Assembly (NCBI GenBank): GCA_965243315.1
Contig: CBDEUP010000007.1
Coordinates: 1,752,221 to 1,816,220, forward strand
DNA: 64,000 nt
Reading direction: 5' to 3'
DNA from: Alphaproteobacteria bacterium
Lineage (GTDB): Bacteria > Pseudomonadota > Alphaproteobacteria > UBA828
Both the position numbers and the translations under genes were made by a program. The notes under the pieces are model-generated. The model made no database searches and was not told the DNA's origin. It saw nothing but the letters and a program-made list of their open reading frames with translations. Positions 8,079 through 51,743 of this stretch are shown here, in pieces; positions within the stretch are counted from its first letter, which is position 1, and each line of letters begins with the position of its first letter.

Positions 8079-9611
8079 TCACTCCCGGCGCAACACGTCG
8101 AAGGCGATGCTGATACGCTCCTCGTCGCCTTTGAACGGAAGCGTGCGATGAAACGTATAAGAGGGAAACAGGAGCATCAGCCCTTCCCCGGGCTTGACAA
8201 GCCTGGTCTCGGGCTCCGCTCGGATCTGGAAGTCCCAATAGGGCCGCCCGAACTCGATCCACCCGGCATGGGCAGCACCGTCCTCGTCGACGGCCCTGGG
8301 CAGACGCACATAGTAGACCCCGCTCAGCCAAGCCGATGGATGGATATGGGGAACCTGATATGCGCCCGCATCGAGGATCACCCCCCACGCCGTGGTTCTG
8401 GTTTGGCGCGGAACATCGGCCACAAACGGATGATCAGAGCCGCGCGGCAGCGCCTCTCGATAGTCGTCCACAGCGCGTTCGATCATCTTCTGAAATGTCG
8501 CGATCGCGGGCCCGCGGCCAGGGAACAACTCTCCCGTGCTCTTGCCCCGCTCCATCGAGTAACTCTCAGGCGCCTCCTGCAAGGTCGGATGGCCGCGGAT
8601 ATGGGCAGACAAGGCCTCATTGAACGCGGTCATGTCCGCAAAACCGGCGGGCGGCGAGCAACGCATGCGCCGAATCAAGTCATCGAAGCCGAGCAGCTCT
8701 CGCGCCGCGGTGTGCTCCCCCAGCTCCCATAGGGCGACCGCCTTCATGGCAAGCGCACCGCTTTGGCCCGGACGGCGGGCCAAAAACGCATCGCAGGCCT
8801 CAAGCGCAGCGCGCGGATCCTTCCGATCGAAATGCGCGTGGACGTGGCGCGGCTTGCCCACCTCGAACGAGGCATCAAGAACGTCGACCTTGAGCGCCGC
8901 CGCCCGCTGATAGGCTCTCAGTGCGTTGTTGAGACTGCCGCTCGCGTAAAGCGCGTTCCCGAGGGCGAAATGCGCCTCCGCATTTTCGGGATCGATCGCG
9001 ATTGCCCGGTGAAACGCGCGCTCGGCCCCGTCGAGGTCTCCCTTCGCGTGGTCGACCAGGCCGATCTGAAGCATGGTACCGGCATGATCGGGGCGAAGCT
9101 CGGCGGCGCGATCGAAGGCCGTGGCGGCGCCATCCAGATCACCCTTCCTGCGCAGCGCGTGACCGAGGTTGAAATGCGTCTCCGCTTTGGCCGGATCGAT
9201 CCCGATCGCGCGGCGATATGCGGCGATCGCCCCGTCGATATGACCAGCCACCTGGAGTGCGTTGCCAAGATCGTTGTGTGCGCCCGAATCGCGATCGTCG
9301 AGCGCGACGGCGCGCCGCAACAGCGCGACCGCCTGTCCGGGCTCATCGAGTTGGAGCGAGACCACGGCGCAGGCCTTCAACGCATCCCTGTGATCGGGGC
9401 GTGCGGCGAGAACCTCGCGATAGAGCGCCTGCGAATCGGCAAGCCGCCCGGTTCGCCGATAGAGGGCGGCCCGGCGCAACGCTTCACGGATGCGGGTCGC
9501 CGACATCGTCGCCCGACAACCGCCGACGCTGGTGCCTTGCCGCGCCGCTCCCGGTGCGTCAGTGGGCCGAGAACCCTTCCCTCGCGAACGTCTGCTCTGG
9601 TTCGGCGCCAT
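8079..9611 (-). CDS. TPR-repeat protein fused to a putative 2OG-Fe(II) oxygenase (TIGR02466-like) C-terminal domain
   Basis: Multiple TPR repeats (ALxxDPxxAEAHxNLGxAL) are followed by a C-terminal SAWLSGVYYVRLP...FPSYTFHRTLP region resembling the PhyH-like 2OG-oxygenase family. Confidence 0.7.
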   Translation of the reverse strand: MAPNQSRRSRGKGSRPTDAPGAARQGTSVGGCRATMSATRIREALRRAALYRRTGRLADSQALYREVLAARPDHRDALKACAVVSLQLDEPGQAVALLRRAVALDDRDSGAHNDLGNALQVAGHIDGAIAAYRRAIGIDPAKAETHFNLGHALRRKGDLDGAATAFDRAAELRPDHAGTMLQIGLVDHAKGDLDGAERAFHRAIAIDPENAEAHFALGNALYASGSLNNALRAYQRAAALKVDVLDASFEVGKPRHVHAHFDRKDPRAALEACDAFLARRPGQSGALAMKAVALWELGEHTAARELLGFDDLIRRMRCSPPAGFADMTAFNEALSAHIRGHPTLQEAPESYSMERGKSTGELFPGRGPAIATFQKMIERAVDDYREALPRGSDHPFVADVPRQTRTTAWGVILDAGAYQVPHIHPSAWLSGVYYVRLPRAVDEDGAAHAGWIEFGRPYWDFQIRAEPETRLVKPGEGLMLLFPSYTFHRTLPFKGDEERISIAFDVLRRE

Positions 9612-10081: not shown

Positions 10082-10471
10082 ATGATCACGCTTCATAATC
10101 CGGATACGGTCGTGGCGCCTGCGTCGTTCTACAGCCAGGCGGCGGAGGTGGGGCCGGGCAAGCGCTGGCTTCACATCTCGGGCCAGGTGGGCGCCGCTCC
10201 GGACGGGTCGCTCGCGGAAGGCTTCGAGGCGCAGAGCGATCAGGTCTGGCGTAACATCGAGGCTCTGCTCGCCGCCGCCGACATGACCATGGAGAACCTG
10301 GTCATCGTGCGGGCGCTGCTGGTGGACCGCGCCCACCTCGGGGCCTATCGCGAGATCAGGGACCGCCACCTGGCGGGCCATCAGGCGGCCTCGACGCTCC
10401 TGATCGTCGCGGGCCTCGCAGACGAGCGCTGGCTGATCGAGATTGAGGCGCTGGCTGCCGCCGAGACCTAA
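10082..10471 (+). CDS. RidA/YjgF/L-PSP family protein
   Basis: Internal start MITLHNPDTVVAPASFYSQAAEV. The 129-aa size and motifs are typical of RidA. Confidence 0.75.
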   Translation: MITLHNPDTVVAPASFYSQAAEVGPGKRWLHISGQVGAAPDGSLAEGFEAQSDQVWRNIEALLAAADMTMENLVIVRALLVDRAHLGAYREIRDRHLAGHQAASTLLIVAGLADERWLIEIEALAAAET

Positions 10472-10482
10472 TCGGGGAGTGG

Positions 10483-11652
10483 TCAGGCGGCGTCGGCTTC
10501 CTCGCTTGCGCCAGCACCGGCGCCGTTCTCGTTGGAGGTGATGGCGCACTCGGACTCGCGCCACCAAAGCGCCTCCAGATCGTTGACATCGACGCCCCGG
10601 TCCCAGATCCGCGCCTTGACCGGGCCGATGTCGGTATCAAGCGTCTGGTCCAGATACTTGCCTTTGTAAATCGTCGCCCCGCTGGTGCACGGCAACGCGT
10701 TGATGCCGGACTCGTCGACGGTCGCCCCGCGGGGCGCAAGCCTGATCCGCTCCGCCCGCACCGCGACGCAGGCAGGCGCACCCCTCTCCGCCAGGCCGGT
10801 GCCGCTCCATGCGCCGCTGATCACGTGCCCGCCGATGCGCACGCTGGCCGTGCCGTTCTGCACGCTCTCGATGGTTCCTTCCAACAGATTCTCCACGCCC
10901 ATGAAGTCCGCGACGAAGCGGGTCGCGGGCCGGTCGAAGAGGTCGGTCGGCGGCCCTTCCTGCACGATCCGCCCTCGCCGCATCAGGATGATCCGGTCGC
11001 TCATGGTGAGCGCCTCTTCCTGACTGTGCGTGACGTAGATGAAGGTGAGGCCGAGCTTCTCGTGGAGGTCGAGGAGCTCCACCTGCATGTCCACGCGCAG
11101 CTTCTCGTCGAGCGCGCCAAGCGGCTCGTCGAGCAGCAGGATCGCAGGCTGCGTCACCAGCGCGCGGGCCAGCGCGACCCGCTGGCGCTCGCCGCCGGAG
11201 AGCTGGTGAACACGGCGGCCGTACTTGTCCAGCAGTCGCACCAGGGCGAGCGCGTCCTCCGCCCGTTGGCGGCGCTGATCCCTGTCGATGCCGCGCACAC
11301 GCAGCCCGTACTCGACGTTCTGTCCGACCGACATGTGGGGGAAGAGCGCGTAGTGCTGGAACACGGTCGTGCAGTTGCGCCGCGACGCCGGGATGGCCGA
11401 GACATCCTCGCCGTCGATGGCGATGCGCGCGATCCGGGTGGGTCGCTCGAGCCCGGCGACGATCCTGAGCAGCGTCGTCTTGCCGGAGCCGCTTTCGCCC
11501 AACAGGGTGAGGAACTCGCCCCGCCGCGCCGTGATCGACACGTCGTCGAGCGCGACCACGTCGCCGAAGCGGTGGGTCGCATGCTCGACCTGCAGGATCT
11601 GGTCGCCGCCGGCCGGTGCGGTGCGCGGCGCGGCTGCTTCACTTGTTGCCAT
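10483..11652 (-). CDS. ABC transporter ATP-binding protein (PotA-like)
   Basis: Walker A GESGSGKTT, signature LSGGERQRVALARAL and a C-terminal TOBE-like domain. Start MATSEAA at 11652 sits just downstream of a GGAGGAGG RBS. Confidence 0.9.
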   Translation of the reverse strand: MATSEAAAPRTAPAGGDQILQVEHATHRFGDVVALDDVSITARRGEFLTLLGESGSGKTTLLRIVAGLERPTRIARIAIDGEDVSAIPASRRNCTTVFQHYALFPHMSVGQNVEYGLRVRGIDRDQRRQRAEDALALVRLLDKYGRRVHQLSGGERQRVALARALVTQPAILLLDEPLGALDEKLRVDMQVELLDLHEKLGLTFIYVTHSQEEALTMSDRIILMRRGRIVQEGPPTDLFDRPATRFVADFMGVENLLEGTIESVQNGTASVRIGGHVISGAWSGTGLAERGAPACVAVRAERIRLAPRGATVDESGINALPCTSGATIYKGKYLDQTLDTDIGPVKARIWDRGVDVNDLEALWWRESECAITSNENGAGAGASEEADAA

Positions 11653-12541
11653 CTCGGCCTCCTCCGAAGGCAAGCTTGATCGCGAGGAAGGTCAACCCGA
11701 TGCTCACGATCGTCACCAGGGTACTCATTGCATAGATCAGGGGCACGGTCGTGTTGTGCGCGCCCGATTGTATCCACAGATAGAGCGGCAGTGTGTCCTG
11801 TCCCGCACGCATGAAGATGCTGAAGGGCAGCTCGTTGAACGACAGCAGGAAGCCGAAGAAGCCTGCCGCGAAGATGCCGGGCTTCAGGATCGGCACCTCG
11901 ATCTGCCAGAAGCGCTGCCAGCGGCTCGCGCCGAGGTCCTCCGCCGCCTCCATCAGCCGCGTGTCGAAGCGCGAGGCGACCACCAGCATCGCCAGCAGCG
12001 CGAAGGGAAACGCCCAGACGAAATGGGCCAGTGCCAGCGACCACACGCCCATCTTCACGTTGATCACGAGGCGATACCACATGAAGAGCCCGACGCCCGC
12101 GACGATGCCCGGCACCATCAGCGGCATGAGGAAGCCGATGAGCAGCGGCCCGCGTCGTTTCACCCGGGGCAGCACCGGCCCCACGATCAGCGCGCCGATC
12201 ACGCACGCCGCCGAGGTGGCGAAGGCAAGCCCGATCGAGAGCAGCAGCGGATCGCCCACGCGGAAGTTACTGCCATAGGCCTCGCCGTCGCGCTGGGCGA
12301 TGTCGGCGTAGATCACGTCCTCGTACCAGGTGAGTGTCCAGTCGCCCGGGATGCCGGTGAGCGGCTCGCCGCTGATGGAGAGGATCATCAGCCAGACGAT
12401 CGGCAGATAGAGGACGAAGAGCACGCCGTAGCCGAAGAAGAGGCCGGTGCCTCGCGGCAGTCCGTCCATGAAACGCCGCCAGAAGGGCGGGCGCACCTGC
12501 GCGTAGGTGATCGTTTCGGAGGCGGGCACGGTCATCGTCAT
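11639..12541 (-). CDS. ABC transporter permease (PotC-like)
   Basis: Membrane permease. Its end overlaps the start of the downstream ATPase gene by 14 nt. Confidence 0.85.
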   Translation of the reverse strand: MTMTVPASETITYAQVRPPFWRRFMDGLPRGTGLFFGYGVLFVLYLPIVWLMILSISGEPLTGIPGDWTLTWYEDVIYADIAQRDGEAYGSNFRVGDPLLLSIGLAFATSAACVIGALIVGPVLPRVKRRGPLLIGFLMPLMVPGIVAGVGLFMWYRLVINVKMGVWSLALAHFVWAFPFALLAMLVVASRFDTRLMEAAEDLGASRWQRFWQIEVPILKPGIFAAGFFGFLLSFNELPFSIFMRAGQDTLPLYLWIQSGAHNTTVPLIYAMSTLVTIVSIGLTFLAIKLAFGGGRDGNK

Positions 12542-13455
12542 CGGCGCAGATTCGCGAAGACTTCGTTGAGACCGCCCACAGGCTTGAGCGCAGCCCAGAG
12601 CAGCACCTGGAAGGCGAGCATGATACCCAGAACGACCGCCGCAAGTGCAGCCGCCACCAAAAAGTTCGAGACTCCGATCAGACTCTGCACCTGGGCGCTC
12701 AACATCAGCACGTTGTTGCCGCCCATGTGCTGGGCCACCACCGTGTCGCCCAGCATCGGTATGAAGGTGAAGACGATGCCGGCGACGACGCCCGGCAACG
12801 CCAGCGGGAAGATGACGTGCACGAGCGTCCTGAAGCGGTTGGCGCCGAGGTCGTTGCTGGCTTCAAGGAAGTCGTTATCGATCAGGCTGATGGAGAGGAA
12901 GATCGGCCACACCATGGTGGGGAAGAAGGCGCCGAGGAAGCCGAAGTGCACGGCGAACTCTGAGAAGATCAGCCAGGTCACGGGCTCGTCCACCGCGCCA
13001 ATCCCGAGCAGCGCCTGATTCACCACGCCGTTGATGCCGAAGACCGAGCGCCAGACGATGACGCGCGCCGCCGGGCTCAGGAAGAACGGCACGGTGAGCG
13101 CGGTGAAGGTGAGCAGGCGCACCATGTTGTTCTTGCAGCCCTTCGCCAGCCAGAGCGCGAAGGGGAACGCGATCATGAGTTCGATGAACGTGATCGTCGC
13201 TGCGATGCGCACCGAGCGCGCGAGCAGATCGCTGCCGCCATAGGAGAAGAACCGCTCGTACTGCAGAAAGGAGGGATCGAAGTTGATCCTGATCCCGCGG
13301 CCCTGGAGGAACGAGACCAGGATGATGGCGAGCAGCGGGATGACGATGCCGCCAAACCAGACGACGGTGAAGCCCGAGAGCGACCAGACGCCTGCCGGCA
13401 AGCGCGGCAGCAGGCGGCGCATGACGTCGTCGTTGGCGGTGAGCGTGGCGGCCAT
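12538..13455 (-). CDS. ABC transporter permease (PotB-like)
   Basis: Paralogous to the permease at 6267..7187. It overlaps the downstream permease by 4 nt. Confidence 0.85.
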   Translation of the reverse strand: MAATLTANDDVMRRLLPRLPAGVWSLSGFTVVWFGGIVIPLLAIILVSFLQGRGIRINFDPSFLQYERFFSYGGSDLLARSVRIAATITFIELMIAFPFALWLAKGCKNNMVRLLTFTALTVPFFLSPAARVIVWRSVFGINGVVNQALLGIGAVDEPVTWLIFSEFAVHFGFLGAFFPTMVWPIFLSISLIDNDFLEASNDLGANRFRTLVHVIFPLALPGVVAGIVFTFIPMLGDTVVAQHMGGNNVLMLSAQVQSLIGVSNFLVAAALAAVVLGIMLAFQVLLWAALKPVGGLNEVFANLRR

Positions 13456-13535
13456 CCTGACTAAGGCAAAATGGGCGAGACCCGCCCCGCCCTCTCATGC
13501 GGCGGGACGGGCCTGGCCCGATAGCGAGCCGAACG

Positions 13536-14741
13536 TTAGGCGTTGAGCACGCGGTCCATCTGAGCCTGCATTTCCTGCAGGTTCGACGGCACCGCGCTGA
13601 ACCAGAAGTCCTCTTTGGCGAACTTGAACTTGACCTTGGCCAGGGCCTCGTCAATCGCGACGCCGACCTCGGGCCCCATGCCGTTCTCTTCGGCGTACTG
13701 CGGGGCAAGATCCGGCCGACCGGTGACGTAGCCGCGCAACGGCGTGATTCCCGCGGCGTAGCTGCCGCTCAGGATCCAGTTGAGCGCCGTGTGCACCTGC
13801 TCGAGATTGCCGCGGTCGTGGACCTGGGTCGGGATGTAACAAGCGTGCATCCACTTGGTGTAGAACTCCGTGGCGTTGGCATAGACCCAGTCACCGCCGG
13901 CCTTGTTGGCCTCGCGCACCGCGGGCTCCCAGCAGCGGATGGCGTCGACTTCGCCGTTCTTCATGTCGGAGACCTGGTCGTCGAAGATCTTCCAGAAGTT
14001 GCGGAACTGCCCGGCCTGCTTGCGCTCGATCAGGAAGTCGGCGGTCGCCGCAGCCTCATCCGGCGACGGATCGAGGAGGTCCTTGACGTCCAGCTGGCCG
14101 GTATTCTTGAGATAGGCGAGCGCCTCCCACAGGTAGATGTAGTTGTCGCCGGTGGACGAGCGGCCCAAGGTCTTCTCGCTCTCGTACACCAACGACCAGG
14201 AGGCTTCCTCCGGCGGGCGCGGCTCGTTCAGCTTCTCCGGCAGATAGCCGAAGCTGTCGGCGTTCATCGCCAGCGGAACGCCCCACACGTGGCCGCCTTC
14301 CGGCGCGAGGTCGCGCTGAAGATAGGGCATTTGCGTGATGCTTTCGGGAATGCCGCCCCAGTTCGGGACTGCCGAGGTCTCGATCGGCTTGATCGCCTCG
14401 CCGTCGATCAAGTCCTGTTCGGCGCCCGTGAGCGCGGCGATGATGTCGAAGCGGTCGCCGCCGTCGTTCACCAGAATTTCGGTCAGGAAGATGCCGGGAT
14501 CGTCCTTGATCACGGTGTCTTCCATCTTGAATCCGGTTTCCCTCTCGAACGCGCTCCAGTCGCCGGGGATAAGGGTGGGGCCGGTGATGAGAAGCCGGAT
14601 GGTGTTGTCGTCCTGGGCAATCGCCCGGCGGGTGAGCCCCTTGAGAATTGCGGGCGCGCCGACGATGGCCGTGCCCGCGGCAGCGCACTTGATGAAGTTG
14701 CGTCGTGAAAGGTGGAAGTAGAGGTGTTTGCTCGTCCGCAT
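13536..14741 (-). CDS. ABC transporter substrate-binding protein, Tat signal (Pot-like operon 2)
   Basis: Start MRTSKHLYFHLSRRNFIKCAAAGTAIVGAPAIL carries a twin-arginine motif. RBS agggagg lies upstream. Paralogous to the SBP at 4984..6177. Confidence 0.8.
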   Translation of the reverse strand: MRTSKHLYFHLSRRNFIKCAAAGTAIVGAPAILKGLTRRAIAQDDNTIRLLITGPTLIPGDWSAFERETGFKMEDTVIKDDPGIFLTEILVNDGGDRFDIIAALTGAEQDLIDGEAIKPIETSAVPNWGGIPESITQMPYLQRDLAPEGGHVWGVPLAMNADSFGYLPEKLNEPRPPEEASWSLVYESEKTLGRSSTGDNYIYLWEALAYLKNTGQLDVKDLLDPSPDEAAATADFLIERKQAGQFRNFWKIFDDQVSDMKNGEVDAIRCWEPAVREANKAGGDWVYANATEFYTKWMHACYIPTQVHDRGNLEQVHTALNWILSGSYAAGITPLRGYVTGRPDLAPQYAEENGMGPEVGVAIDEALAKVKFKFAKEDFWFSAVPSNLQEMQAQMDRVLNA

Positions 14742-44562: not shown

Positions 44563-45330
44563 TCAGTAAATGCTGAACGGGAAGTAGCGGCCGTTGATGG
44601 CCAAATAGGTGCCGTCGGCGAGGATTTCCGCGAGCGCGCGGTTCAGGCCCTGGCGCAAGGCGTCGTCTTCGTGGCGCACGGCAAAGCCGATGCCCTCGTC
44701 GAGCCTGAGGCCGTGCCCGACGTAGTGGAAAGCGGCGCCGTCTGCGCTCTGGAGCCAGGAGTAGAGGCCGAGGCCGTCGCCGAGAACCGCGTCCAGGCGG
44801 GCGCTGGCAAGATCGCCCAGCATTTCCGACTGACTGCGGTAGAGCTTGATGGTCGCCACGTCGGCCAGATTGTCCTCGAGCCAGTCTGACGAAACTGTGG
44901 CTCGCGCGACGCCGATCGTTGTTCCGGCCGGCTGATCGGGGTGAAAGTCGGAATCCTTGTTCGCGACGAAACGGGCGACGTTGCTGTAGTAGCGGTCGGT
45001 GAAGGCGACCAACTCCCGGCGCGGCTCGGTGATCGACATGCTGGCGGCGATCACGTCGAAGGTCCCGGCGCGCAGCTCCGGAATCAGCGTCTCCCACTCG
45101 TGGTGCCGGAGCTCGCACTCGACGTCCATCCGTTCGCAAAGCGCCAGCGCGATATCGACGTCGAAGCCGCTGAGCTCGCCCGCATCGTCGACGTAGTTGA
45201 ACGGTGGATAATCGCCTGTGGTTGCGATGCGGAGGTTGTTCGCTGCGGCATCCGCGCTCACTGCCATCAAAGTGAGACCAATGACGGCCGCAACCCAGCG
45301 CAGCGGTCCGGGCGGAAAAGGTGGCTTCAC
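44563..45330 (-). CDS. Family-3 (polar amino acid) periplasmic substrate-binding protein, orphan
   Basis: Signal peptide plus LRIATTGDYPPFNYVDDAGELSGFDVDIA, the typical His/Lys/Arg/Orn-type SBP N-terminus. No cognate permease or ATPase is adjacent. Confidence 0.8.
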   Translation of the reverse strand: MKPPFPPGPLRWVAAVIGLTLMAVSADAAANNLRIATTGDYPPFNYVDDAGELSGFDVDIALALCERMDVECELRHHEWETLIPELRAGTFDVIAASMSITEPRRELVAFTDRYYSNVARFVANKDSDFHPDQPAGTTIGVARATVSSDWLEDNLADVATIKLYRSQSEMLGDLASARLDAVLGDGLGLYSWLQSADGAAFHYVGHGLRLDEGIGFAVRHEDDALRQGLNRALAEILADGTYLAINGRYFPFSIY

Positions 45331-45750
45331 GGCTGTACCTCTCTTGCCAGGTTCGCGCTGTGCTACCAGCGGGATACTTTACTCAATGGCGAATGAATCT
45401 TGCGTGTCAATACTCACGACAATAGCGCTCTTTTTGTAGACAGCGCGTTGGCTTCGTCGCCTGGCTGCCGAGGCTGCGGCGCGGGCCCAGGAATTGCGGT
45501 CCGGCTTCCAATCTGCGCAGCGGTAGTGCTGGCGGCCCAACGGCGGTGTAACGAGCTTGCCATAATATTTATGGAAAAGGCACCGTCACGATCAATGTAA
45601 ATACACACAATTTACTTCTATTGCCGTAAGAATCTAGCAATGAGTCTTGCGTTTCCAGGTGACCTCGGCCCTGGCCCGTCGGGTCAGCACTGTGACGTCA
45701 CGGTGGCAGGAGGCGGCCCTTCCTGGCTCCGGCGAAAGGGAGAAGACGGG

Positions 45751-46590
45751 ATGAGGATGGCACTCTCGATCGCGGTGCTGGCAGCTGCGGTCGCGCTCGC
45801 GTCCTGCACTCGGACGCTCGATCCTCCGACGCCCGAGGAACAGGCGCGGGAGAGCCACGGGGCGATCGTCGGCGCGGCGAACACGCTGCTGATGGGCGAC
45901 CGGCTGGCCTGGTTCGCGACGGAGGGCGACGTGGAGCGGGCGAACACGACCTGTCGGGACGACACCTGCGCGGTCGGATACCTGGCCTTGAGCAGGACGA
46001 CTCGGTTCGGCCTCGAGGGCTGGGAGCTGACGTTGCTTCGCGAGCGCCGCGGCGTGGGCCTGTTTCGACAGGAACTCGCGGCAACCCACCGCGACTATGA
46101 GGCCTATGGTGGTTGGCTCGAGCACAGCCTGTTCGCCACGCGGCTGACCCGGTTCGGCGAGGAGGCGGGCCCCAGCGCGGGGGCGTCGGTGGTGTTCGGC
46201 TATTCGCTCGGGCTCTCGAGCGGGGAGAACCCCGGCGCCGAAGGCTCGGCCCGCTGGGAAGGGCTGATGCTCGGCCGCGACGTCAGCGCCTCACGCAGCC
46301 GCGGCCAGGCGATCCGGGGCGACGCCGACGTGACGGTCGAGTTCGGAGCCGACGCGATCACGGCGGATGTCGCGTTCACCGGCATCGTCAACATCGAGAC
46401 GGGCGCTGCGCGGAACGACATGGCGTGGCGCGGCCTGGAGGTGGAGGACGGCGGCTTCGCCCGGCGGAGCGCTCCCGGCGACACCGTTTCGGGCCGGTTC
46501 TACGGCCCCGATGAGGAGGAGGTCGGCGGGGTCTTCGAACGCGACGGCATCGCCGGCGCCTTCGGCGGGCGGCGCACCTCCGCGCCGTGA
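45751..46590 (+). CDS. Surface lipoprotein with TbpB-like C-lobe beta-barrel domain
   Basis: Start MRMALSIAVLAAAVALASC has a lipobox, and RBS gggagaag lies upstream. C-terminus GRFYGPDEEEVGGVFERDGIAGAFGGRR matches the TbpB/fHbp beta-barrel C-terminal signature (G.FYG...E.GG.F....GAFGG). Confidence 0.65.
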   Translation: MRMALSIAVLAAAVALASCTRTLDPPTPEEQARESHGAIVGAANTLLMGDRLAWFATEGDVERANTTCRDDTCAVGYLALSRTTRFGLEGWELTLLRERRGVGLFRQELAATHRDYEAYGGWLEHSLFATRLTRFGEEAGPSAGASVVFGYSLGLSSGENPGAEGSARWEGLMLGRDVSASRSRGQAIRGDADVTVEFGADAITADVAFTGIVNIETGAARNDMAWRGLEVEDGGFARRSAPGDTVSGRFYGPDEEEVGGVFERDGIAGAFGGRRTSAP

Positions 46591-46646
46591 CCCGCTGCGT
46601 CCCGTTCTGATCGCCGCCGGCGCCGCAACATCCTAGGGAGGGTCCG

Positions 46647-47498
46647 ATGAGAGTAGGATTCCCGAGTGCGTTGGCGGCAGCAGCGCTGGCGCTGGCGGCC
46701 TGCACCGGCTCGCCCGAGCCGCCACCGCCGCCGACGGCGGACGAGTTGGCGCGGTCCGCCTATGCACGGATCGTGAGCGGCTCGAATACGTACCTGATGG
46801 GCGACCATCTCGGCTGGTTCGGAACCGACGACGCGGTCGAACGGGTGGGCGTCAGGTGCCTGGACGACACCTGCGTGTCCGCCGTCCAACGGGCATTCCG
46901 GTCGACCACCGCGTTGAGCGTCGAAGGCAACGAGCTGGATCTGCTCGGCGAACGCCGCGGCGTGAGCCTGGTCGTGGAGGAAGCATCGGGCGATTACGCG
47001 GACGCCCACGTCTATGGCGGTTGGCTCGATCACAGCCTGTTCGCCACGGAAACCGCCCTTCTCACGCACGAAATCTTCCCGGACCGGGGCGCGACGGTGG
47101 CGCTGAACTATTCGGTCGGCTTCTCGACGGGGGAGAATCCCCGCGCAGTCGACGGCTTGGCCCGCTGGGAGGGACTGATGCTCGGCCGCGACATGCGCGC
47201 GACGCCCGGCCGTGCCCAGGTCATCTGGGGCGACGCCGACGTGACGATCGAATTCGGGGCGGATGCCGTGACGGCCGACGTCGCGTTTACCGACATCGCC
47301 AATGTCGATACCGGCGAGGCGTGGGGCGACATGGCGTGGCGCGGCATGGCGGTGGAGAACGGCGGCTTCGCCCGCAGGAACGCCCCCGACGACACGATCT
47401 CGGGCCGGTTCTACGGCCCCAACGAGGAGGAAGTCGGCGGCATATTCGAGCGCGACGGCATGGCGGGTGCGTTCGGCGGAAAGCGCGCCTTCCCATAG
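46647..47498 (+). CDS. Paralogous TbpB-like beta-barrel surface lipoprotein
   Basis: MRVGFPSALAAAALALAAC has a lipobox. The protein is collinear with the upstream paralog and ends GRFYGPNEEEVGGIFERDGMAGAFGGKR. Confidence 0.65.
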   Translation: MRVGFPSALAAAALALAACTGSPEPPPPPTADELARSAYARIVSGSNTYLMGDHLGWFGTDDAVERVGVRCLDDTCVSAVQRAFRSTTALSVEGNELDLLGERRGVSLVVEEASGDYADAHVYGGWLDHSLFATETALLTHEIFPDRGATVALNYSVGFSTGENPRAVDGLARWEGLMLGRDMRATPGRAQVIWGDADVTIEFGADAVTADVAFTDIANVDTGEAWGDMAWRGMAVENGGFARRNAPDDTISGRFYGPNEEEVGGIFERDGMAGAFGGKRAFP

Positions 47499-47609
47499 CT
47501 GTCGTTCGACGAGCGGGTTGCGAGCCGACCGGCACGGTAAGTCGTCGAACCGCCTTGATGCCGAGGGTCAAGTTGGCCCGCCCAACGGCTATAGAGCGAG
47601 AGCAGGAGA

Positions 47610-48032
47610 ATGAGCGCGACCTTTACACTCAATATGGAAGCACCGCTGGACGAAATCGAGCGCATTCACACGGCGGTCGACATCCTGGCGGCGGCCGATG
47701 GCTGGGAGCCCGATTTCATGTTTCAGATCAGGCTCGCACTGGAGGAGGTCGGCACCAACATCGTGCAGTACGGATACGACGAAGCAGGGAAAAAGGACAT
47801 CCGCATTACGCTTACCTCCAAAGGCCAATCCCTCACGATGGAAATCGTCGACGACGGCAAGCCCTTCGATCCGTTCTCCGATGCACCGTCGCCCGATCTC
47901 GACTCCTCGGTCGCGGACCGCCCCATAGGTGGCCTCGGCATCCATCTCGTGCGGAGGCTAATGGACGAAGCGCACTATCGGCGCGAGGACGGCAGGAACA
48001 GGGTGGTCCTGATCAAGCGGAGGAAGCCTTGA
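47610..48032 (+). CDS. Anti-sigma regulatory factor / Ser-Thr kinase (RsbW-like, HATPase_c_2)
   Basis: 140 aa. LALEEVGTNIVQYGY...MEIVDDGKPFDP...GGLGIHLVRRLMDE match the N, G1 and G2 boxes of the RsbW/SpoIIAB family. RBS aggag lies upstream. Confidence 0.7.
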   Translation: MSATFTLNMEAPLDEIERIHTAVDILAAADGWEPDFMFQIRLALEEVGTNIVQYGYDEAGKKDIRITLTSKGQSLTMEIVDDGKPFDPFSDAPSPDLDSSVADRPIGGLGIHLVRRLMDEAHYRREDGRNRVVLIKRRKP

Positions 48033-49829: not shown

Positions 49830-50486
49830 ATGCTGACATTCGTTGAAGAGACTTGCCTCTTGCTTCTGGATGAGAAAGGCAGCGAGTTCCTGCCCATACA
49901 CCCCAACATAGTAGAATGCGCCCTGGCCGGGGCCGTGCTTGTGGATCTGGCGTTCGCCTATCGGATTGACACCGATCCTAAGACCCTGGCCGTCATGGAC
50001 CGTACGCCGATCGGCGAGGCCATGCTCGATCGTATCCTGGCCAAGATCGGCGAGCACACGGAAACTACCGATACCGCCACTTGGATAAAGACGTTGTCCG
50101 CCGACGAATCGGCAGCCATTCAACAACAGGCACTCGACCGACTCGTGGAGCGGGGCATTCTAGAGCGGCAGGATAAGAAATCTCTCTTGGGTTTCCGCAA
50201 ACGCCGCTATCTCACCCTCGACGGCGAGGCGGCACGCGAGATCAAGGACCGTATAAGGACGCTCATTCTCTCGGATGACATACCCGATCCTCGGGATATC
50301 GCGCTGCTTTCTTTGTTAGATTCCTGTGGAATTCTTCCCGAAATTTACCCCGACGTCGAGTTCAAGAGCGCCGGCGTGCGAATAAGACAGCTCCGCAACA
50401 TGGATCTTGTTGGCCGCGACGTGTTCAACGCCGTTACCGACATCGAACGCGCAATCGTCACAGCACGTGCACACGGAGCCCACTAA
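49830..50486 (+). CDS. GPP34/GOLPH3-family protein
   Basis: CLLLLDEKGSEF...ALAGAVLVDLA...LVERGIL...SLLGFRKRRY fit the bacterial GPP34 family profile. GC is lower, about 55%. Confidence 0.65.
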   Translation: MLTFVEETCLLLLDEKGSEFLPIHPNIVECALAGAVLVDLAFAYRIDTDPKTLAVMDRTPIGEAMLDRILAKIGEHTETTDTATWIKTLSADESAAIQQQALDRLVERGILERQDKKSLLGFRKRRYLTLDGEAAREIKDRIRTLILSDDIPDPRDIALLSLLDSCGILPEIYPDVEFKSAGVRIRQLRNMDLVGRDVFNAVTDIERAIVTARAHGAH

Positions 50487-50546: not shown

Positions 50547-51743
50547 ATGACAGAAGAGCCAAACGCTGAAACACTAGAATTGCGTTCGACTCCCTACAAG
50601 ATTCTCGTCGTAGACGACGAACCTGACTTGGAACGTCTCGTTCTGCAGCAGATGCGCCGGGAGATTCGTCGCCAGCAGTATGAGTTTGTCTTCGCGCACA
50701 ATGGTATCGAAGCTCTTGAACGGCTCAGCCAGGATCCGGGCATCGATTTGGTGGTCTCGGACATCAACATGCCCAAGATGGACGGTCTTGCACTCCTTGA
50801 AGAGATTTCTGAAGTCAATGCGGACGTGCGTTCCGTGATCGTGTCAGCGTACGGCGATATGAAGAACATTCGCACTGCGATGAACCGGGGCGCTTTCGAT
50901 TTCGTGACCAAGCCCATCGACTTCGCAGACCTGAAGGTCACGATCGAACGAACATTGCGCAATCTGATTTCGTGGAGAGAGGCGACAGAATCGCGCGAAA
51001 AGCTTCTAGCAATACAAAATGAACTCGATGTAGCCAGCAAAATGCAACAGTCGATCCTTCCGACCGTTTTCCCCGCAGATTCTCGGTATCAGGTGTTCGG
51101 TAGCATGTCACCCGCTCGGGAAGTAGGCGGGGATTTTTTCGACATTATGAAATTGGAAGAGGGACGTATTGGTATTGCGGTCGCGGATGTGTCCGGCAAG
51201 GGCGTTCCCGCCGCCCTCTTCATGATGTCTTGCCGCACTCTTCTCAAAGGTGCAGCCATCGGCACCGCTCACCCTGGCGCGGTGCTGAAGGAGGTCAACC
51301 AAGTTCTTCAGGAAGACAACGAAGCGATGATGTTCGTCACGCTGTTCTACGCAATTTTCGACCCGCAGAGCGGGGAAATGGTGTATGCAAACGGGGGTCA
51401 CAATCCGCCAGTTATTGTTAAAGCCGATGGAAGCTCCAGCGAGATTCCCGTGACGAGTGGGATTGCGCTCGGCGTGATGCCTGACATGGACTTTGTGGAA
51501 GACGCGCTACATGTCGCGCCGGGGGAATCAGTCGTATTCTACACCGATGGCGTCACGGAAGCCGAGAATGCTACGGCAGAGTTGTTCGATATGGAGCGGC
51601 TGCGGATGGTCTTTACCGGAGTGCCCCCGAAAGACGCGAAAGAAGCCAACAAGGCGGTTTTCGAGGCGGTGAGCGCGTTTGCAGGCGACACGCCGCAATC
51701 CGACGACATCACTTGCATAACGCTCTATCGCTGCGAGTCATGA
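50547..51743 (+). CDS. Response regulator with PP2C (SpoIIE/RsbU-like) phosphatase output domain
   Basis: N-terminal REC domain (ILVVDDEPD...VVSDINMPKMDG...VTKP). C-terminal PP2C domain (GGDFFD, VADVSGKGVPAALFMM, YANGGHNPP, FYTDGVTEA). GC is about 52%. Confidence 0.85.
   Translation: MTEEPNAETLELRSTPYKILVVDDEPDLERLVLQQMRREIRRQQYEFVFAHNGIEALERLSQDPGIDLVVSDINMPKMDGLALLEEISEVNADVRSVIVSAYGDMKNIRTAMNRGAFDFVTKPIDFADLKVTIERTLRNLISWREATESREKLLAIQNELDVASKMQQSILPTVFPADSRYQVFGSMSPAREVGGDFFDIMKLEEGRIGIAVADVSGKGVPAALFMMSCRTLLKGAAIGTAHPGAVLKEVNQVLQEDNEAMMFVTLFYAIFDPQSGEMVYANGGHNPPVIVKADGSSSEIPVTSGIALGVMPDMDFVEDALHVAPGESVVFYTDGVTEAENATAELFDMERLRMVFTGVPPKDAKEANKAVFEAVSAFAGDTPQSDDITCITLYRCES

Follow-up and report, generated by a model that had tools for sequence, protein, structure and literature searches.

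What would two tandem lipoproteins of the TbpB fold do in an alphaproteobacterium, and by what route would they reach their place of action? Lipoproteins of this fold are known almost entirely from animal pathogens, in connection with iron theft, the disarming of complement and vaccine antigens. The pair, here called A and B, lies in a 64,000-nt stretch of contig CBDEUP010000007.1 (positions 1,752,221–1,816,220 of the forward strand; hereafter the window), and an earlier note on this DNA had described it as two surface lipoproteins with a barrel of the TbpB/fHbp type. The explanation that we favour, with moderate confidence, is that A and B are co-expressed, surface-displayed binding proteins of a sponge symbiont, with host association as their most plausible role.

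Gene A (45751–46590, + strand), defined from its open reading frame (ORF) and sequence, encodes a 279-residue lipoprotein precursor with one TbpB-like lobe, and gene B (46647–47498, + strand) encodes a 283-residue precursor with a Pro-rich linker and the same handle-plus-barrel layout. The two proteins are tandem paralogues, 59% identical across 251 residues (E = 9e-102). The ORF listing puts the start of A further upstream, at an ATG at 45640. We take 45751 as the real start, because all 50 homologues compared with A begin there, with M-R-(T/M) as their first residues, and because a ribosome-binding site (AAAGGGAGAAG, 45735–45745, + strand) precedes it. This site falls within the last ~25 nt 5' of the ATG, which is the sole conserved upstream block in an alignment of 10–12 orthologous upstream regions. 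The spacer between A and B (46591–46646, + strand) is 56 nt long and carries a ribosome-binding site for B, AGGGAGGG, at 46635–46642. A scan of 45300–47700, the spacer included, found no terminator-like site, and in the related loci L001/L005, L006 and L007 the stop codon of A and the start codon of B overlap by 4 nt. Given the spacer without a terminator and these overlaps, A and B are probably read from one transcript. The ratio of nonsynonymous to synonymous substitution rates (dN/dS) against orthologues was 0.29–0.55 for A and 0.29–0.59 in pairwise comparisons across both genes, which indicates purifying selection on both copies, relaxed as is common for surface proteins.

Both precursors begin with a lipoprotein signal peptide. 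That of A (45751–45807, + strand; MRMALSIAVLAAAVALAS-C19-TRT) ends in the lipobox L-A-S-C19 and that of B (...AAAALALAA-C19-TGS) in L-A-A-C19, each with Thr at position +2. The lipobox Cys is invariant across 51 homologues, and a lipobox-like motif is present in 93 of the 112 family ORFs in the fetched loci, Nitrospirota ORFs included. In most of these 93 the Cys is followed by a Gly-rich tether; in A and B the linker after Cys19 is short, about 8–12 residues. The handle domain of A (45829–46170, + strand; about residues 27–140) is predicted to form one helix and then about ten beta strands, and carries a C68-x4-C73 pair and a conserved GGW(L)xxSxF motif at residues 120–128; Pfam gave no match in this region. 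The C-terminal 8-stranded barrel of A (46171–46578, + strand; about residues 141–276) contains the Pfam match, at residues 164–275, and closes with the motif SGRFYGPDEEEVGGVFERDGIAGAFGGRR at 46489–46578. The corresponding motif of B is SGRFYGPNEEEVGGIFERDGMAGAFGGKR, and the two proteins share the consensus end SGRFYGP(D/N)EEEVGG(V/I)FERDG(I/M)AGAFGG(R/K)R.

Both proteins exceeded the gathering score of the Pfam family TbpB_B_D (PF01298) by a narrow margin (29.6 bits for A and 27.6 for B against 26), with an alignment in B that covered the last 36 residues only. No fHbp-type family appeared in the Pfam and NCBIfam scans of A and B at E ≤ 1. A sequence search of the PDB matched TbpB, LbpB and NHBA, the best E-value being 0.09 with the single sequence as query and 1e-3 with the family profile; since even the profile aligned the last barrel strands alone, sequence by itself would not assign the fold. 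AlphaFold2 (AF2) was run with family alignments for both proteins. The models of A (mean predicted local distance difference test, pLDDT, 88.9; predicted template-modelling score, pTM, 0.86) and B (pLDDT 82.6; pTM 0.82) each comprised a short helix, about ten handle strands (residues about 45–135) and a pattern consistent with an 8-stranded barrel (about 145–276). When the models were compared with the PDB by Foldseek, all 36 matches of A at E ≤ 1e-3 were TbpB, LbpB, HphA/hemophilin, fHbp or NHBA, the best being the TbpB C-lobe (5kkx, E = 4e-7). For B, 43 of the 45 matches at this threshold came from the same proteins or from PmSLP, with the TbpB C-lobe and the hemophilin of A. baumannii as the best, and the remaining two were chains of BFA1 (5yvf). 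fHbp was a weaker structural match (E = 8e-5 to 1e-3).

These results indicate that A and B are almost certainly TbpB-fold lipoproteins, and on the models the fold class is secure. By signal peptide, domain and predicted fold both belong to the TbpB_B_D superfamily; neither is a TbpB or LbpB proper, a hemophilin/HphA or an fHbp. What the earlier note had read from the letters held up here: tandem paralogous ORFs on the + strand, the lipoboxes LASC and LAAC, the C-terminal FYGP..EEEVGG.FE..GAFGG(R/K)R signature in both proteins, and a TbpB-type barrel, which was recovered by the family search, narrowly, and by structure prediction.

The closest structural match of both proteins, the C-lobe of TbpB from N. 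meningitidis (5kkx), has the same order of handle and barrel, and its C-terminal G-x-FYGP-x-x-E-(L/V)-(G/A)-G-x-F strands are common to A and B. TbpB, however, is a protein of two lobes (500–700 residues), as is LbpB in its lobe number, and it binds transferrin, is regulated by iron and has its gene beside that of the TonB-dependent receptor TbpA. A and B are each one handle plus one barrel, share 10–16% sequence identity with TbpB at template-modelling (TM) scores of 0.4–0.5, and have no receptor partner among the 32 ORFs scanned in the window. It would be wrong to read a transferrin or iron function into the automatic name 'transferrin-binding protein-like'. fHbp, NHBA and PmSLP (the last matched by B only) offer another comparison, as small, Slam-dependent lipoproteins of pathogens with a single barrel, whose ligands are host macromolecules and not nutrients; the NHBA barrel gave the highest target TM-score, 0.6–0.7, at 21–25% identity. 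They differ in the N-terminal part, which is a second barrel-like domain in fHbp and disordered in NHBA. They are also hypervariable antigens, and the hypervariability of pathogen TbpB and fHbp is unlike the conservation of A and B, whose orthologues are 64–90% identical with dN/dS of 0.3–0.6.

Conservation is unevenly spread along the proteins. Between A and B the identity is 46% over the handle and 70% over the barrel, between A and family members of other phyla it is 28% and 43%, respectively, and the last 35 alignment columns are the most conserved segment of the family (60% identity). Such a distribution would be expected of C-terminal strands that act as a shared signal for export or assembly, with the specific function residing in the handle. 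Across 69 non-redundant full-length members from several phyla, the conserved handle residues were L47, D50, R63, C68-x4-C73, G120-G121-W122 and F128, with C68, C73, W122 and F128 each conserved in 98%. In the barrel they were G154, N160-P161, W169-x-G171 and G234-x-F236, together with the strands G-x-F-Y-G-P-x-x-E-E-V-G-G-x-F-E ... G-A-F-G-x-x-R. The near-invariance of the C68/C73 pair fits an oxidising, exported location. In each protein, a short linker would lead to a beta handle with a disulfide and then to the 8-stranded TbpB_B_D barrel at the C terminus, equivalent to one TbpB lobe.

The pair is a stable unit in its own lineage. A is followed by B in all loci of one clade (L001–L013), at 64–81% identity to the window's A. 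The complete chromosomes OZ220705.1, OZ242305.1 and CBDEUQ01 carry the pair. The labels of the closest loci are Alphaproteobacteria, Rhodospirillales or Defluviicoccus, with Acidobacteria for a single bin, in line with the duplicated alphaproteobacterial pair noted earlier, and the genes flanking the pair differ completely between genomes. In a distance tree the A clade and the B clade are sisters with the same genomes in both, so the duplication is older than the clade, which has retained both copies. In some genomes of this clade there are further, much more divergent tandem copies, one or at times two beyond A and B (E = 1e-22 to 1e-32 against the A/B profile), at 11504–12709 in L001/L005, 11087–12688 and 14313–15470 (− strand) in L004, ~11750–12680 in L006–L008 and 14457–15635 in L013. 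In the distance tree these extra copies group with Nitrospirota sequences and not with A or B; the window holds A and B only.

The retention of both genes suggests one refinement, namely that A and B pair up as a heterodimer in the manner of the N-lobe and C-lobe of TbpB or LbpB, with one protein for the ligand and the other for anchoring or export. Such a split two-lobe receptor would accord with a pair that no genome of the clade lacks and that always has A ahead of B, with a stop/start overlap that in several genomes suggests translational coupling, with sister clades that track the same genomes, and with an A–B divergence concentrated in the handle. Pairing is not family-wide, however, as other members occur singly or as three to four tandem copies. 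We consider the split receptor rather unlikely in itself; it is compatible with surface-displayed binding proteins of a symbiont and refines that explanation.

We further explored how widely the family is distributed. A word-seeded search returned 238 relatives, the best at 90% identity. A HMMER scan of 1.84 billion cluster representatives returned 1225 at E ≤ 1e-3, 669 at E ≤ 1e-10 and 76 at E ≤ 1e-30. In a scan of one genome per species, covering 185,579 species, 114 relatives were found, of which the best 80 were kept as loci. All 80 come from metagenome-assembled genomes (MAGs), labelled Nitrospirota (28), Alphaproteobacteria (22), Gammaproteobacteria (21), Acidobacteriota (4, one of them on a 4.0-Mb 'Terriglobia' chromosome) and Binatia (2), with 3 less well classified, and a genome often holds several family copies, four in the case of the closed Nitrospirales chromosome OZ242346.1. 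Few relatives have a source name. Those that do belong to MAGs of Rhodospirillales, Defluviicoccus and 'Deltaproteobacteria', and their names read 'transferrin-binding protein-like solute binding protein' or 'hypothetical'; the TbpB-like label on relatives is already known from NCBI source names.

Several lines of evidence connect these genomes with sponges. Many of the MAG labels (RHO, APA, COS, CAR, the SB06xx bins and Nitrospira bin75) are ones that we take to be from sponge metagenome studies. Two loci come from Candidatus Spongiihabitans, a known sponge symbiont (PMC12988363), and contigs with a related Slam come from samples labelled ROBB21, which matches the Robbins 2021 survey of coral-reef demosponges (PMC8163846). 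The window itself contains a gene for a GPP34 protein (Golgi phosphoprotein 3-like, PF05719, 135 bits; 49830–50486, + strand), 2.3 kb downstream of B, and a cytochrome P450 gene (40692–42128, − strand) about 8 kb from it. The GPP34 family has been reported as sponge-symbiosis-associated across 16 phyla, frequently with a P450 gene in the vicinity, and as missing from those free-living relatives that were analysed (PMC11706023), so the two genes support a sponge-symbiont origin of the window. Like the A/B family, GPP34 is spread over many phyla of sponge symbionts; the parallel is one of distribution only and not of kinship, since the fold of GPP34 is unrelated, and the protein is proposed to be a binder of phosphatidylinositol 4-phosphate, either cytosolic or secreted (PMC11706023). 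We conclude with good, though not full, confidence that A and B belong to a branch associated with sponge symbionts. The cross-phylum, multi-copy pattern suggests lateral spread among these symbionts. If that is true, the family would be a new candidate for how a very old animal lineage recognises or tolerates bacteria, and would stand beside eukaryote-like repeat proteins and GPP34 in sponge symbiosis.

Outside the window, family members reach considerable size. The protein P0271 is a 4105-residue lipoprotein (LAALAAC) with about 16 tandem complete lobes (16 stretches by phmmer), each with an NCTGRxC pair, the motif YGGWLDxSAF and FYG..EVGG.F...GAFGARR strands. Many other cluster representatives have 2–5 matched lobes in 600–2500 residues; known multi-lobe cargo has 2–3 lobes.

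Having established the family, we asked how its members might be exported. A Slam gene lies near a family member in 13 related loci, directly downstream of it in most, and its product combines N-terminal tetratricopeptide repeats (TPR) with a C-terminal SlipAM/DUF560 barrel (PF04575, 89.7 bits against 22). Such gene linkage, the argument used by Hooda et al. and by Grossman et al. (PMC5449769, PMC12282271), here in 13 distant loci, ties the A/B family to the type 11 secretion system (T11SS). The lipoprotein–Slam cassettes occur in Gamma- and Alphaproteobacteria (Paracoccaceae and Ca. Spongiihabitans included), as well as on the 'Terriglobia' chromosome and two short contigs labelled Acidobacteriota. 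Slam proteins of different classes are 48–67% identical and their partner lipoproteins mostly cluster together in the tree, from which the two-gene cassette appears to move laterally. In the Acidobacteriota-labelled sequences the Slam/SlipAM gene stands directly downstream of the lipoprotein genes, at 10584–12116 in L030 (OZ244973.1, the 'Terriglobia' chromosome of 4.04 Mb), 792–1913 in L029 and 471–1880 in L036; these Slams are 59% identical to that of the alphaproteobacterial locus L033, with labels as given and two short contigs that could be mis-binned. In the literature searched, T11SS and Slam have been reported from Proteobacteria only, and T11SS cargo, and apparently Slam as well, would then extend beyond that phylum. 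In L072, an Arenicellales MAG, the Slam gene is split into two fragments (10459–10953 and 13433–14293) by an IS66-family transposase (PF03050, 148 bits; 11914–13557, − strand). Defluviicoccus-type Slams (416 residues) lie at 3–938 in L084 and 6128–7858 in L086. The ORFs preceding them (311 residues, cut by the contig end, and 576 residues) were tried as family members and rejected, as they match neither the family HMM nor Pfam; they may represent a different, unrecognised type of cargo.

A and B themselves are not linked to Slam, and this is the first of several points that weigh against our explanation. A six-frame hmmsearch of the 64-kb window with a hidden Markov model (HMM) of sponge-symbiont Slam found none, and a Pfam scan of 32 window ORFs, A and B included, found neither a DUF560/SlipAM protein nor a TonB-dependent receptor, which bears out the earlier observation that the window lacks a Slam-like gene. 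No Slam gene adjoins any locus of the A/B clade. Two word-seeded Slam searches (shared 5-residue words) of a 5.8-billion-protein collection, one of them giving the best 120 of 181 matches, had none among the matches listed on the window's 2,430,176-bp contig or on eight other pair-bearing contigs of more than 1 Mb. The sole contig that could serve as a control (4,794,520 bp, L050) was recovered; with one control contig, a listing of 120 of 181 and a word-seeded method, this is weak-to-moderate evidence for the absence of Slam from these contigs. Both proteins also scored below the cut-off of the NCBIfam equivalog NF041636, 'Slam-dependent surface lipoprotein' (36.1 and 36.5 bits against 80, E about 6e-9). 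Against the solved structures the TM-scores were modest (0.3–0.5 for whole proteins, with the NHBA barrel higher, as given above), which implies that handle topology or domain orientation differs from that of solved cargo. Most of the remaining MAGs are long-read assemblies named by identifier (UUID), in a style that may point to the Aquatic Symbiosis Genomics project; their sponge origin, like that of the window, we infer from sources other than metadata, and the window's source is very probably a sponge-associated alphaproteobacterium. Surface exposure is somewhat probable; of the earlier term 'surface lipoproteins' the second word is firm and the first conditional. A host-derived ligand we rate as somewhat less likely than not. 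In the window, a 510-residue protein (8079–9611, − strand) with many TPR repeats and a C-terminal 2-oxoglutarate (2OG)-Fe(II) oxygenase domain gave a weak, below-cut-off match to TPR_Slam, which stems from the TPRs only and comes with no DUF560 barrel.

Related systems show how an unlinked pair might still be served. Neisseria Slam1 serves tbpB, lbpB and fHbp, none of them linked to it. In marine Rhodobacteraceae, T11SS genes rarely adjoin their cargo (PMC12282271). The closest described proteins, 'haemophilin-like group 2' and the 282–375-residue lipoproteins of marine Rhodobacteraceae/Roseobacteraceae processed by signal peptidase II (SPII), have a lipobox, a single handle with a TbpB_B_D barrel and a similar size, and come from alphaproteobacterial, marine or host-associated sources (PMC12282271). 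They were defined by an adjoining DUF560/T11SS gene (PMC12282271), whereas A and B have none within 64 kb or at orthologous loci, and the A/B branch, unlike what that study covers, also extends to Nitrospirota, Acidobacteriota and Binatia and is apparently tied to sponges. For a symbiont, the closest functional analogy is NilC of Xenorhabdus nematophila, a lipoprotein of the T11SS cargo class with which this nematode mutualist associates with its host (PMC5449769). NilC, however, adjoins its T11SS gene nilB; a BLAST comparison by Grossman et al. brought up no relatives of NilC in the rest of the cargo (PMC12282271). The sponge and T11SS literature that we searched makes no mention of the A/B lipoprotein family. 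New relative to it are the spread over sponge-symbiont phyla, the conserved Slam-unlinked A/B pair and the Slam cassettes in MAGs with non-Proteobacteria labels. We regard Slam dependence of A and B as somewhat less likely than not. The unlinked pair and the Nitrospirota copies are natural cases in which to ask whether the barrel can reach the surface by another route.

The same absence feeds a rival explanation, in which the barrel was recruited to a task in the periplasm or envelope of a bacterium whose genome has no T11SS, and the proteins never reach the surface. The Slam negatives for the window, the clade loci and the large pair-bearing contigs are what this would predict, the family also occurs in Nitrospirota and Binatia, from which no T11SS has been described (PMC5449769), and the linker after Cys19 is short against the long Gly-rich tethers of many members. 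On the other hand, every characterised protein of TbpB-like fold is surface-exposed or secreted, no part of the family is as conserved as the C-terminal strands, which target known cargo to the T11SS, and 13 relatives lie near a Slam gene, most of them directly upstream of it. Habitat restriction and expansion to about 16 lobes also fit a host interface better than a housekeeping envelope role. We consider a periplasm-facing location of A and B unlikely.

The explanation with surface display can be laid out as a series of steps. A and B, each with signal peptide and lipobox, would be made together, exported by Sec, cleaved by SPII, lipidated at Cys19 and sorted by Lol to the outer membrane, as expected in the absence of Asp at +2. 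The conserved C-terminal barrel strands would be recognised by a translocon, either an unlinked T11SS/Slam or an unknown alternative, the proteins would be displayed on the cell surface through the short Pro-rich tether, and the diverged handles would bind an extracellular, probably host-derived ligand. Host association is favoured because no receptor, transporter or iron signal turned up at the related loci scanned, and because the family is apparently habitat-restricted, laterally spread, multi-copy and extended to as many as about 16 lobes; by analogy with NilC, fHbp, NHBA or PmSLP it seems more likely than a TbpB/TbpA-type role in iron reception. The fullest version of this idea, a symbiosis family of TbpB-lobe surface lipoproteins exchanged laterally among at least five phylum- or class-level groups of sponge symbionts, expanded in copies per genome and in lobes per protein, for host recognition or evasion, with A and B as a split receptor lacking an adjacent and possibly any Slam, has a rather low probability; of these groups, Nitrospirota, Acidobacteriota and Binatia are not known to have a T11SS.

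The weakest rival holds that A, B or both bind heme, a metal or a metal carrier and pass it to an unlinked TonB-dependent receptor. The fold is common to hemophilin and TbpB, as the earlier note implied in likening the pair to proteins that capture iron, heme or complement factors; HphA of A. baumannii and S. maltophilia is among the best structural matches (target TM-scores 0.49–0.51 for B), A has a weak match to the Pfam family HphA_C (PF22829, E = 0.008), and His125 is invariant within the A/B clade. That likeness stands for the fold and goes little further: the HphA_C score of A is 16.9 bits against a cut-off of 31, and B has no match; His125 is 66% conserved across the family, which argues against a family-wide heme ligand; the best matches to Fur, Irr (ICE) and Mur consensus sites upstream of 12 orthologues lie inside the background distribution; the proteins are single-lobed; known hemophilins are soluble proteins cleaved by signal peptidase I (SPI), whereas A and B are lipoproteins; and a TonB-dependent receptor was found neither among the 32 window ORFs nor among the annotated neighbour families of 80+ related loci, where no search was aimed at receptors. 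A heme or metal ligand is improbable by our estimate, and nutrient capture as a whole is equally so.

Upstream of A, an AT-rich patch (45550–45649, + strand) stands out in the composition profile, with a GC fraction of 0.37 against 0.65 for the window. It lies inside the 420-nt intergenic region common to A and a divergent SBP_bac_3 gene and is possibly the promoter region; the only sigma-70-like match in the patch or the intergenic region is on the minus strand, with none on the plus strand, and the patch is not conserved in orthologous loci. The earlier note had placed a palindrome resembling a cAMP response element (CRE) in this AT-rich region. Patch and palindrome both exist, and GTGACGTCAC occurs once in the window, at 45692–45701, in a GC-rich stretch after the patch. 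We rejected it as a feature, as it is missing from all 11 orthologous upstream regions and, by our calculation, a 64-kb stretch should contain about 60 perfect palindromes of 10 nt, whatever their sequence. A conserved hairpin in the 5' untranslated region, hinted at by three close loci, was also rejected (RNAalifold over 10 loci: 3 pairs, −1 kcal/mol), and Rfam gave no match in the leader upstream of A.

The genes around family members in 83 loci, together with those in the 23 kb of the window that surround the pair, were clustered all against all (1595 ORFs). A conserved operon partner was rejected on this basis, with no neighbour family in more than 15 loci. The recurrent neighbours (Tll0287-like, histidine kinase, ATP-binding cassette (ABC) ATPase, autotransporter, AAA_5, LysM, DabA and MpsC) are synteny inside Nitrospirales or generic. 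The Tll0287-like protein (PF11845) lies 1.5–6 kb from a family lipoprotein in 15 loci, in three gene arrangements, among Nitrospirales and some Gammaproteobacteria (for example 12643–13224 in L055, whose member has a CxxCH heme-c motif, 7922–8506 in L019 and 16080–16670 in L054); this proximity could be chance or synteny.

In the window, the neighbours of A and B are an amino-acid-type solute-binding protein on the opposite strand, an anti-sigma-type kinase, a second solute-binding protein, GPP34, a response-regulator phosphatase and sensor kinases. The kinase (HATPase_c_2; 47610–48032, + strand) begins 111 nt downstream of B, and the phosphatase, with response-regulator and SpoIIE (PP2C) domains, lies nearby at 50547–51743 (+ strand). 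Their adjacency to A and B is not seen in orthologous loci, and together the HATPase_c_2 kinase and the SpoIIE phosphatase resemble a partner-switching module.

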